Shown: positions 34,601 through 37,600 of the stretch, piece by piece
Numbering within the stretch: position 1 is the stretch's first letter
How the letters are laid out: each line of letters begins with the position of its first letter
DNA from: a virus
Lineage: Duplodnaviria; Heunggongvirae; Uroviricota; Caudoviricetes
Length of the DNA: 52,790 nucleotides
Direction: 5' to 3' (one strand)
Virus record (IMG/VR): IMGVR_UViG_2534681742_000008
Coordinates: 1 to 52,790 of that record
Program-made: the position numbers

Positions 34601-37600
34601 TCAGCAAAATAGCTGACAAGGTAGGTGACAGCCCTCAGAAAATGATGACCGAGCTTGGCAAGCTGCAAAAACAAGCAAATGGTCAGGTGTTTAAAACTGT
34701 ATTTGGTGGGAAGAACGGAAAAGAGATAGAGGGGATGTTATCTATTCTCGATGCTACCAAAAGAGCATCTGAGGCTAATGTTGTGACGAAGACTGGCATG
34801 ACACTCGCGCCTTTGGTAAGGGTTATTGGTAACCTAAAAACCGGAGGCGCGCTATTGGCTGGGGAAACAGGGATTGGCCTTATGTCGAGGGTTTATGAAA
34901 GCCCTATGGCTAGGAATGCGCTCTTACGTCTGGCAAACACTAAAGCTGGAACGCCAGCTTATGAAAGAGCGCTGAATAACGCCGCAAATGCCATCAGACC
35001 AATACTTGCCAATGATGCAACTGATCGCTAAGGGTTGATGTCATGGATGTTGTTAATTGCGAATGGAATCGCGGAACTCTTTGCTTGATAGAAAAGGATC
35101 TGTTCTCCTTAACTCATCATAGTTTTTATTAAACTTTCTTGCTTCACCTGGGTATCTGTTGAACAAAACATTGCAGAAAAAAGAGAGCAATAACTCACAT
35201 ATGAATGCTAATACCCTGAAAAATAAAGGTATAAAAAGAAGGGAAGGTTCATTGAAGTCTCTATTCCAAACAAAATAGACAATCATCCCGACATACCAAA
35301 TTGATATCCCTATACTGATGATTGTTCCAACAGAGGTAACTACGATCCCGATTAAGTCGGACAGTCTGTTTGCCAGTAACTCATTTGAGTATCTTGCAAT
35401 CATATACCGCCAACATTTTGCAATATCATCCTGATCTGTAGAGTCTTCTGGAATAGCTAGGATTCTACATATTGAAGTAGCTCTTTTTTTCTCAACTCTT
35501 TTTGAGAGCCATCCATTAAAGAGATACATCAACACCTGCGTTGCTATTCCTGCACCAAGTGATATCAAAGACATCCCCAAAAATCGCCATCCTGGAGATA
35601 GTGACTGGTACTGCCAAACAAAAAAAATTAAAAAACCCAATGAGCCTATGACATAGGCTGATGTATCGCTATATATATCTATTTTTTTCATTGAGTAGCC
35701 ACTCCTTAGTTTTGAGCAGAACACCGGATGATAATGTTTTGTTATGTGTCTTTTGGGATTCTATCCAGTAACTCGTTGGAAATTTTATCAAGTAAAGATT
35801 TTATTTGTTTAAGATCTAATGATTTGTCTACTGATGAGACGTCATATGATAACGCATCCTCAAGAATTTGAACTATCTCTGAGTTCATAGATCGACCGTT
35901 TCGTTTAGCCCTTTCCGCAATAGCACTACGCATGCCGTCAGGCATTCTAACCGTAAATCTTTCTATGAAATTTGATTCGTCTTTTTCTGACATTTTCTTA
36001 TTCGCAAGGCATATGAGCAATAAAAAACACAGTAGCATCATATTGACATTATGAGCAATGGCATCATAATGGTGTCATGACATCATGGTGATGTCATTAT
36101 GACGGAGATATTGATGATGAGCGATGTTCTTTACAGTGGTCGTAAAAGTCAGAGTTTCCAGCTTCGTTTGCCAGCGCGAATGAAGGAGGAGATTAGACGT
36201 GTTGCTGAAATGGATGGAATTTCTATCAACTCTGCGATTGTGCAGCGACTGGCTAAAAGCCTGAGAGAGGAAAGAGCTAATGCCCAGTAAAAATAGTGAA
36301 GCCCGGCAGTGCGCGAACACAAACCGGGCCTCTATGTCAGTAACCGTATGCAAGGAAACTAACATGAACATTGTAGCAAAATCAGATTATAACTTCCAAG
36401 GATTCACCTTTAACCCTGTAACAGAGGGTGGGTCTATCTGGTTTACCTCCACCGAACTAGCTAAGGCTCTCGGCTATAAAAAAACTGATGCCATCAGCCA
36501 AATTTATGCCCGTAATGCTGACGAGTTTTCCGACTCAATGTCATTGACCCTCAATATGAAGGTCAACGGGATAAACAATAGCTTACGTAACAAATCGGTC
36601 AGAGTTTACTCGCTCCGAGGCGCTCACTTGGTGGCGATGTTTGCTTCTACGCCCAAGGCCAAAGAGTTCCGCCGCTGGGTGCTGGATATTTTGGATCGGC
36701 AGGCAGAATGCTCACCGATTGCAAAACAGTTTACTGACGAAGAGCTGGTTAATCTCTGCTACTTACAATTGTGGATGGAGAAGAGTCAACAAATGTGCAA
36801 ACACATCTACCCAGGAATGAAGCAAATTGGTTCTGAGCTTTCTGGAAGGATTTACGATATTGCATATGAGACTCGCTACATGTCAGAAGAAACCAAGAAA
36901 TCACTTCTTCGTGAAATGAAGAATCTTGATACCAACAATTTTGTCGTAAAGAACGCTCAGCCAATGCTGGCAAAACTGCGCGGCGAGGAATGGATTCATT
37001 GATTGGTGCGCCGGACGGCGCAAAAAGAAAACCGCCAGTGTGCTGCTGGCGGCCTATGTCACACCCTTACTACCACATAAGGAATGCCTAATGACTTTTA
37101 AGAATGTAGCAAACATCGGATCCGTTGTCACGGATAAAACCATTGACAGCCAGCGCCTGCTTGAGATGGTAAATCAGGCTCGTAGACAGTGCGGTGAGCC
37201 GGAGGTTCGTAATAACAAATTCATCGAGAAAATTGAAGATGAATTGGATGGAGAGCACTACACAAAAAGTGTAGTGCAAAAAGCGAACAAAACTTCGATG
37301 GTTATCATTGAGATGTCAATCAAGCAAGCATTGCGAGTTGCCGCTCGCGAGTCAAAAGCCGTTCGCCGCTCACTGGTAGACCAACTTGAAAGTATGCAAG
37401 AAGCGCACATTAAAAGCGGTAAATCAGCGAGTGGACTTGTTGAGTATCGTCAAGCGCGAACATTGAAAATGACGGTTGAAGCTGTTACCAATCTGTTCGA
37501 TCTGATGCCAAATCTTGCGCCGGAAGCAAAGCAGACTGCTGCAGCAAGCATAATCAACCCGCTCGTTGGTTTTAATGCAATACCTCTTCCGGCAATAGAA

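Follow-up and report, generated by a model that had tools for sequence, protein, structure and literature searches.

In cell fractionation, the SieA protein of phage P22 is found with the inner membrane, and its block of DNA injection is confined to P22-like phages (Leavitt et al., mBio 2024, PMC10883804). The same study described a second version, type B, in the HS1 prophage of E. coli HS (EcHS_A0321). The HS1 protein is 24% identical to P22 SieA, which is of type A, and has about 30 extra N-terminal residues holding one additional transmembrane (TM) segment. Cloned into Salmonella with 106 bp of upstream DNA, HS1 sieA gave full exclusion of P22, L, MG40, MG178 and LP7 and also excluded P22 hybrids with the ejection proteins of L, Sf6 or CUS-3; exclusion of the HK620 ejection-protein hybrid was partial, with plating at about 10%. 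The exclusion spectra of types A and B were indistinguishable (PMC10883804). Here we analyze an open reading frame (ORF) at positions 35053..35691, minus strand, of a 52,790-nucleotide stretch of viral DNA (positions 1 to 52,790 of IMG/VR record IMGVR_UViG_2534681742_000008; this whole stretch is called the window). We conclude, with a probability of about 0.93, that it is a type B sieA gene, the superinfection-exclusion gene of a P22-like prophage at tRNA-Thr(CGT).

Identity of the gene and its family

The window protein and HS1 SieA are identical at 210 of 212 residues, and this was the sole match in the E. coli HS genome, where the gene follows a gene 16 homologue in a P22-like prophage. 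The two differences (L62/I and I77/S, window vs. HS1) are at alignment positions that vary freely in type B proteins. Similarity extends to type A: BLASTP against the annotated P22 SieA gave 40 identities over 148 residues (27%, E = 6e-24), and 40 identities over the 164 amino acids (aa) of P22 SieA reproduce the published 24%. Residue 44 of the window protein aligns with P22 residue 14, which corresponds to the 30-aa N-terminal extension described for type B. The protein also matched PHROG 7745, "superinfection exclusion SieA-like" (E = 5.9e-20, profile positions 15-159 of 164), and a tblastn search of 50,697 phage records returned only sieA of P22 and close relatives (26% over 159 residues, E about 1e-10). 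An earlier note on this DNA had reported no verifiable similarity for the ORF, a statement that the PHROG, P22 and HS1 matches overturn.

The most conserved feature of SieA is the motif FxRYPxEAxxFNK (Leavitt et al., PMC10883804), an exact copy of which follows the last TM segment of the window protein (Table 1). Among 121 family sequences collected by profile search, R179 and P181 within this motif are conserved at 99%, and N108, R109 and D112 of a second motif, NRLSD, at 93-100%. A Trp at the periplasmic end of TM4 is also near-invariant, F153 standing at that place in the window protein. Among type B proteins conservation peaks on the cytoplasmic side, in KCWRYMIxRYS..LLxNRLSD before TM3 and FNRYPGEARxFNKNYD...LLSSKEFRDSI after TM4. 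The gene therefore has what defines the SieA family, namely similarity to P22 SieA, the motif after the last TM segment and a place between genes 16 and 9 opposite to the ejection genes. It also has what defines type B: some 30 extra N-terminal residues with an additional TM segment (four in total) and near-identity to the HS1 protein. For the window gene, the evidence given here is its homology and motif, its predicted topology, its position and its near-identity to the HS1 allele; the exclusion phenotype, inner-membrane location, injection block and gp16/gp20 escape mutations are taken from the literature on the HS1 allele and P22 SieA.

The same earlier note had taken the ORF for the counterpart of P22 sieA, a four-TM protein encoded opposite to the ejection genes, directly after gp16 and before immI. 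This survives in full: gene calls at 33199..35031 (plus strand) and for mnt, arc and ant confirm the placement, hydropathy and structure modelling give four segments, and position, orientation and TM helices are now joined by similarity and motif. The expression and phage-challenge test that the note had asked for is, in essence, already published for the near-identical HS1 allele (PMC10883804). The window sieA is, in other words, an already known gene.

General annotation resources miss it. PADLOC gave no match for the SieA protein, NCBIfam gave noise only for the window protein and P22 SieA alike, and the Pfam-A copy that we scanned gave sub-threshold noise only (DUF3918; EI24/CysZ, E = 0.08; ABC permease, E = 0.041). 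PF26849, a family missing from that Pfam-A copy, is listed for all homologues in the precomputed annotation of the protein database.

On sequence grounds the ORF is a real gene and not a chance ORF, since full-length homologues at 53-99% identity occur in Salmonella, Yersinia and Serratia, and, of 5426 complete E. coli genomes searched by megablast, 21 carry the gene, one copy each and always labelled "hypothetical protein". The start codon is the ATG at 35691..35689, chosen by RefSeq annotators in E. coli HS and O111; homologues all begin with MKKIDI or similar. A GTG at 35724, 33 nt further upstream (223 aa), was rejected because annotators and homologues use the equivalent Met. The Shine-Dalgarno sequence AAGGAG is found in the conserved leader of every type B locus and of P22 sieA. 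At 36.5% G+C (vs. 45.7% for the window), the gene has the low G+C typical of an acquired accessory gene. Two terminator-like hairpins inside the ORF (35659..35643 and 35600..35572, minus strand) were judged to be chance. The one at 35643-35659, 30 nt into the ORF, has a 7-bp stem (AGCCTATG-TCA-CATAGGCT) with T-runs 7 nt beyond it; the T-runs encode FLIFF of TM1 and, given this 7-nt gap, we do not regard it as an attenuator.

An IMG/VR scan with a type B profile yielded 23 loci. In all 23, as in the records of P22, HS and O111, the sieA homologue adjoins gene 16 in convergent orientation, between genes 16 and 9. Near-identical sieA alleles (97-100%) are paired with gp16 proteins 55%, 59% or 99% identical to that of the window, and gp20 is equally varied, in agreement with the published finding that SieA tolerates a great diversity of ejection proteins (PMC10883804). 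Megablast of the 1.9-kb region against the 50,697 phage records matched the gene 16 and immI flanks only, so that this type B sieA is missing from those records; this agrees with the statement that type B SieA is known only from prophages (PMC10883804). A one-genome-per-species collection gave no match either by protein profile or by a degenerate DNA pattern for FxRYPxEAxxFNK. At the E. coli O111:H- 110512 locus (NZ_AP019761.1, 2505468-2514106; L002), the prophage region is disrupted by two copies of IS1203, of which one interrupts ant and the other gene 16, and mnt is recorded as a partial pseudogene; sieA is intact.

Predicted topology and the step probably blocked

Hydropathy analysis of the window protein showed four hydrophobic segments with Kyte-Doolittle maxima of 1.7-2.5, and these coincide with the long helices of an AlphaFold2 model (9-26, 33-77, 105-142 and 149-177), which has three further short helices in loop 62-111 and the C-terminal tail. 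K and R residues are clustered, with 10 in loop 62-111 and 9 in tail 178-212, and loops 32-38 and 143-150 are short. By the positive-inside rule, this distribution predicts that both termini and the long loop are cytoplasmic. Periplasmic exposure would then be limited to two short loops, SPGWR and NRDFNEPS, of about 5-8 residues each, while the cytoplasmic side would comprise a basic loop of 50 residues and a tail of 35. This topology agrees with the published TMHMM result, in which type A has three TM segments and types B and C have one more at the N-terminus (PMC10883804). Together, hydropathy and the positive-inside pattern predict that the window SieA resides in the inner membrane; the experimental location, by cell fractionation, is for FLAG-tagged P22 SieA only (PMC10883804). 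Known folds were of no help: a PDB sequence profile search with SieA gave noise only, and Foldseek of the model against the PDB gave nothing below E = 1 (TM-scores about 0.2), so that no known fold could be assigned.

Escape from SieA takes as many as three substitutions, located toward the C-termini of gp16 (G532W, P546S) and gp20 (residues 338-350) (PMC10883804). According to a 2026 preprint, gp16 spans the cytoplasmic membrane and sits on the C-terminal 'club foot' of gp20. Together, the published results and the preprint locate the block by SieA where gp20 meets gp16, in or on the inner membrane. A lysogen making SieA would stop incoming P22-like phages after adsorption: ejected gp20 (the periplasmic tube) and gp16 (the inner-membrane channel) would fail to form, or to use, a working conduit at the inner membrane. 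The superinfecting DNA would never reach the cytoplasm, and other phage types would be unaffected. We regard the TM3-TM4 hairpin, which carries the cytoplasm-facing motifs NRxxD and GR[YF]PGEA, as the likely functional core. A purely periplasmic contact of SieA with gp20 is unlikely, given the very small periplasmic exposure of SieA. In the window gp16, the P22 escape residue G532 is conserved and P546 is replaced by K. Residues 338-350 of P22 gp20 cannot be aligned with the window gp20, which has a different C-terminal module, and self-sensitivity cannot be deduced.

Expression and alternative explanations

Expression is the one real uncertainty about the function of sieA in the window. In an alignment with the HS and O111 loci, the identity of the window DNA to HS1 spans the last 48 bp before the ATG, all of sieA and the adjoining 3′ end of gene 16; the DNA preceding these 48 bp is unrelated in the window and HS1. 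The upstream modules of 20 type B loci are of at least five different kinds, with the joint lying at or just upstream of this 48-nt leader; the window and O111 are among seven loci with the mnt-sieA junction. P22 sieA and the type B loci have part of the leader, TGGTATCCTGC[A/T]CAAAACTAAGGAG, in common, the proteins being only 27% identical; the window copy (35702-35725, minus strand; cf. L001:3430-3455) has three substitutions and reads CGGTGTTCTGCT... This shared part of the leader may mark a recombination boundary or serve in regulation.

At the junction, 48 bp before the ATG, the -35 of a plausible HS1 promoter gives way to other sequence, and no acceptable -35 was found in the window for the -10 that the leader retains. 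The sequence suggests, for this reason, that sieA is probably transcribed together with mnt, by read-through from a Pmnt-like promoter candidate. This candidate is placed as Pmnt is in P22 and faces a plus-strand TTGACA-16-CATAAT site. A second, weak candidate within the 3′-terminal part of mnt (35811..35782) may contribute; such promoter sites are no more frequent in the region than in shuffled sequences.

Several observations weigh against, or loosen, the assignment of a working type B sieA. The DNA upstream of -48 differs from that in the HS1 clone, and the HS1 candidate TTGATA-17-CATTAT has no -35 in the window. It could be argued that the gene, although a true sieA homologue, is expressed poorly or not at all, recombination at the junction having removed its own -35 and left it intact but non-protective. 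The internal promoter candidate matches the consensus at 9 of 12 positions only, and decay of the gene does occur: in one IMG/VR locus (L019:4001-4637, IMGVR_UViG_2636415906_000003) a one-base insertion near codon 20-25 breaks the sieA frame, giving an apparent pseudogene. However, sieA is intact, and identical or nearly so, in the seven loci that have the same mnt-sieA junction. Moreover, mnt is expressed in P22 lysogens, and in the window it lies on the same strand as sieA, 50 bp upstream, with no terminator-like site found between the two genes, so that read-through is the simple expectation. P22 sieA is itself weakly transcribed and still excludes (PMC10883804). We therefore consider a silent gene very improbable.

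The remaining reservations concern protein and function. TM1 is short and marginal, with a hydropathy of 1.35 in a 19-residue window (2.10 with 15 residues), and the AlphaFold2 model is of moderate quality only (mean pLDDT 76, pTM 0.57, alignment of 12 sequences). The function of the window allele would be carried over from an HS1 protein that differs at two residues, and the equation of EcHS_A0321 with ECHS_RS01600 rests on the single HS match, its position and the 24% figure, the old tag not being displayed in the RefSeq record. Molecular contact of SieA with gp16 or gp20 is not established even for P22 (PMC10883804). One might imagine a membrane protein of another role in the sieA slot (holin-like, abortive-infection toxin, lysogenic conversion or transport), which does not block DNA entry. 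The silence of PADLOC and NCBIfam, the Pfam noise, the want of a similar solved structure by sequence or fold and the RefSeq label "hypothetical protein" would all be compatible with this. The family motif and topology are conserved, however, and the transporter matches are far below cut-offs, making another role even less credible than a silent gene.

Prophage context and distant relatives

The element that carries sieA is a complete-looking P22-like prophage of about 40.8 kb at tRNA-Thr(CGT), bounded by 25-nt repeats of the tRNA-Thr 3′ end and with its integrase gene beside the tRNA. Upstream of the tRNA lies a gene, presumably proA, for a protein of the aldehyde dehydrogenase family. Gene 16 is convergent with sieA, their stop codons being 21 bp apart, and the C-terminal half of the gene 20 product is a different mosaic module from that of P22 gp20. 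The mnt-like gene is co-directional with sieA. The immI region seems duplicated or extended compared to that of P22, ant being followed, before the tailspike gene, by a second antirepressor gene and a third Arc-fold gene. Beyond the tailspike gene, still inside the att repeats, are an Acyl_transf_3 O-acetyltransferase gene (40367-41536, minus strand), likely an O-antigen-modifying conversion gene, and a UmuD-like Peptidase_S24 gene (41610-42023, plus strand).

Table 1. Coordinates of features in the window and of distant SieA-like genes in other IMG/VR loci
Feature	Coordinates	Strand	Basis or remark
att direct repeat, 3′ end of tRNA-Thr(CGT)	1420-1444 and 42255-42279		exact, 25 nt
Integrase gene, next to tRNA-Thr	1459-2619	-	
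Gene 20 homologue, periplasmic conduit protein; other SieA target class	31736..33202	+	48% identity to P22 gp20, N-terminal 238 aa
Gene 16 homologue, inner-membrane part of DNA conduit; SieA target class	33199..35031	+	PHROG 770 "DNA transfer protein", E = 4e-245; 54% identical to P22 gp16
sieA (type B) CDS, 212 aa + stop	35053..35691	-	ORF, PHROG 7745, P22 SieA and HS1 SieA matches
FNRYPGEARKFNK, residues 177-189, exact FxRYPxEAxxFNK; predicted cytoplasmic	35125..35163	-	motif of PMC10883804; invariant in type B homologues
TM4, residues 150-177 (predicted)	35161..35244	-	hydropathy; AlphaFold2 helix 149-177
TM3, residues 109-142 (predicted)	35266..35367	-	hydropathy; AlphaFold2 helix 105-142
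NRLSD motif, residues 108-112, cytoplasmic start of TM3	35356..35370	-	conservation in 121 sequences
TM2, residues 37-58 (predicted); equals P22 SieA TM1	35518..35583	-	hydropathy; alignment from P22 residue 14
TM1, residues 10-26 (predicted); extra N-terminal helix separating type B from type A	35614..35664	-	hydropathy; AlphaFold2 helix 9-26; PMC10883804
Conserved 48-nt leader ACATTATCATCCGGTGTTCTGCTCAAAACTAAGGAGTGGCTACTCA, with -10-like TATCAT; mosaic junction at upstream end	35692..35739	-	DNA alignment with HS1 locus
Shine-Dalgarno AAGGAG, 10-nt spacer to sieA ATG	35702..35707	-	read from sequence
mnt-like repressor gene, 83 aa (length of P22 Mnt)	35742..35993	-	Pfam Arc, E = 2.4e-17; 57% to P22 Mnt over 37 aa
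Weak internal promoter candidate TAAACA-18-TAAAAT with TG, in mnt 3′ end	35782..35811	-	consensus scan, 9/12
Pmnt-like promoter candidate ATGCCA-16-TATGAT	36037..36064	-	consensus scan only, 9/12
Arc-like gene	36099..36290	+	
ant (Ant-type antirepressor)	36280..37002	+	
Second antirepressor gene	37040..37819		phrog_1726, E = 9e-101
Third Arc-fold gene	37846..38103	-	
Tailspike gene	38236..40326		P22 head-binding domain, E = 1.9e-64
Distant SieA-like genes	L028:5995-6537; L030:5995-6519; L032:6001-6486; L033:5878-6372		

With the type B profile, a search of 1.84 billion cluster representatives (50% identity) yielded 174 clusters at E <= 0.001, 32 of them at E <= 1e-10. Most of these SieA-like proteins are 160-180 aa long, like type A, and named members come from Morganella, Vibrio proteolyticus, Vibrio fluvialis and Aeromonas salmonicida. 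There are also SieA-like fusions of 337-617 aa, with a J-domain-like C-terminus in P0040 (337 aa), a protease-like region at the N-terminus of P0079 (617 aa) and a long N-terminal extension in P0020 (430 aa). Scanning IMG/VR with a profile of distant members gave seven loci on contigs of 56-63% G+C; one of these ORFs, that of L028, matched PHROG 7745 when rescanned (E = 9.5e-9). In five loci (L028, L030, L031, L032 and L033) the SieA-like gene lies 12-28 bp downstream of a same-strand ORF, which encodes a CI-type repressor (HTH plus Peptidase_S24) in all four that were scanned (L028, L030, L032 and L033); L031, outside that scan, has the same ORF layout and match statistics as L032. In L027 and L029 the gene lies beside an opposite-strand ORF of 405 aa, an integrase in L027, the one scanned.

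Every SieA homologue examined by Leavitt et al. lay in the gene 16–gene 9 slot of a P22-like prophage (PMC10883804); the distant genes of the seven GC-rich loci are outside that slot. The family appears to extend well beyond the three enterobacterial types. A tentative reading, which we hold to be unlikely, is that these distant proteins also block DNA entry; the hairpin with its two nearly invariant motifs would then be a general prophage module, which could act via a common inner-membrane factor, for example a host factor, and not via type-specific gp16/gp20 contacts. If true, this would address a puzzle raised in PMC10883804, that very different SieA proteins exclude very different ejection proteins.

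The significance of these findings for the window itself is small, and their practical value is an annotation fix: a gene labelled "hypothetical protein" in 21 complete E. coli genomes and missed by PADLOC, NCBIfam and our Pfam copy gains a functional name. The assignment implies that lysogens of this prophage should resist other P22-like phages, which bears on phage typing, transduction and phage therapy. The locus is also an example of annotation in which position and topology predicted the function rightly, a PHROG search and one paper confirming it.

Comparison with known exclusion systems

Exclusion at the level of DNA entry is not peculiar to SieA. T4 Imm is likewise a small phage membrane protein that stops DNA injection by related phages. 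So are HK97 gp15, Tuc2009 Sie2009 and TP-J34 Ltp, with which SieA was compared in PMC10883804. HK97 gp15, T4 Imm, Sie2009 and Ltp differ from SieA in that they target long-tailed phages, with their tape-measure and tail-tube conduits, and not the gp7/gp20/gp16 conduit of P22-like podophages; none of our searches detected a sequence relationship of SieA to any of them.

P22 SieA shares with the window protein the three core TM helices, the FxRYPxEAxxFNK motif and part of the 5′ leader, and its gene likewise lies between genes 16 and 9 in the orientation opposite to the ejection genes. It is shorter (162-164 aa), lacking the N-terminal helix and a C-terminal extension of about 16 aa. In P22, moreover, orf59a and a terminator lie between mnt and sieA, and sieA has its own annotated promoter. 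The HS1 locus differs in other respects: a gene with a helix-turn-helix (HTH) domain lies upstream of sieA, vs. the mnt-like gene of the window, so that the promoter context is different, and HS1 gp16 is only 55% identical to that of the window, the ejection proteins of the two prophages being different. HS1 SieA itself, however, has the same length, the same four predicted helices and the same motif as the window protein, and its gene has the same 48-nt leader and the same convergence with gene 16.

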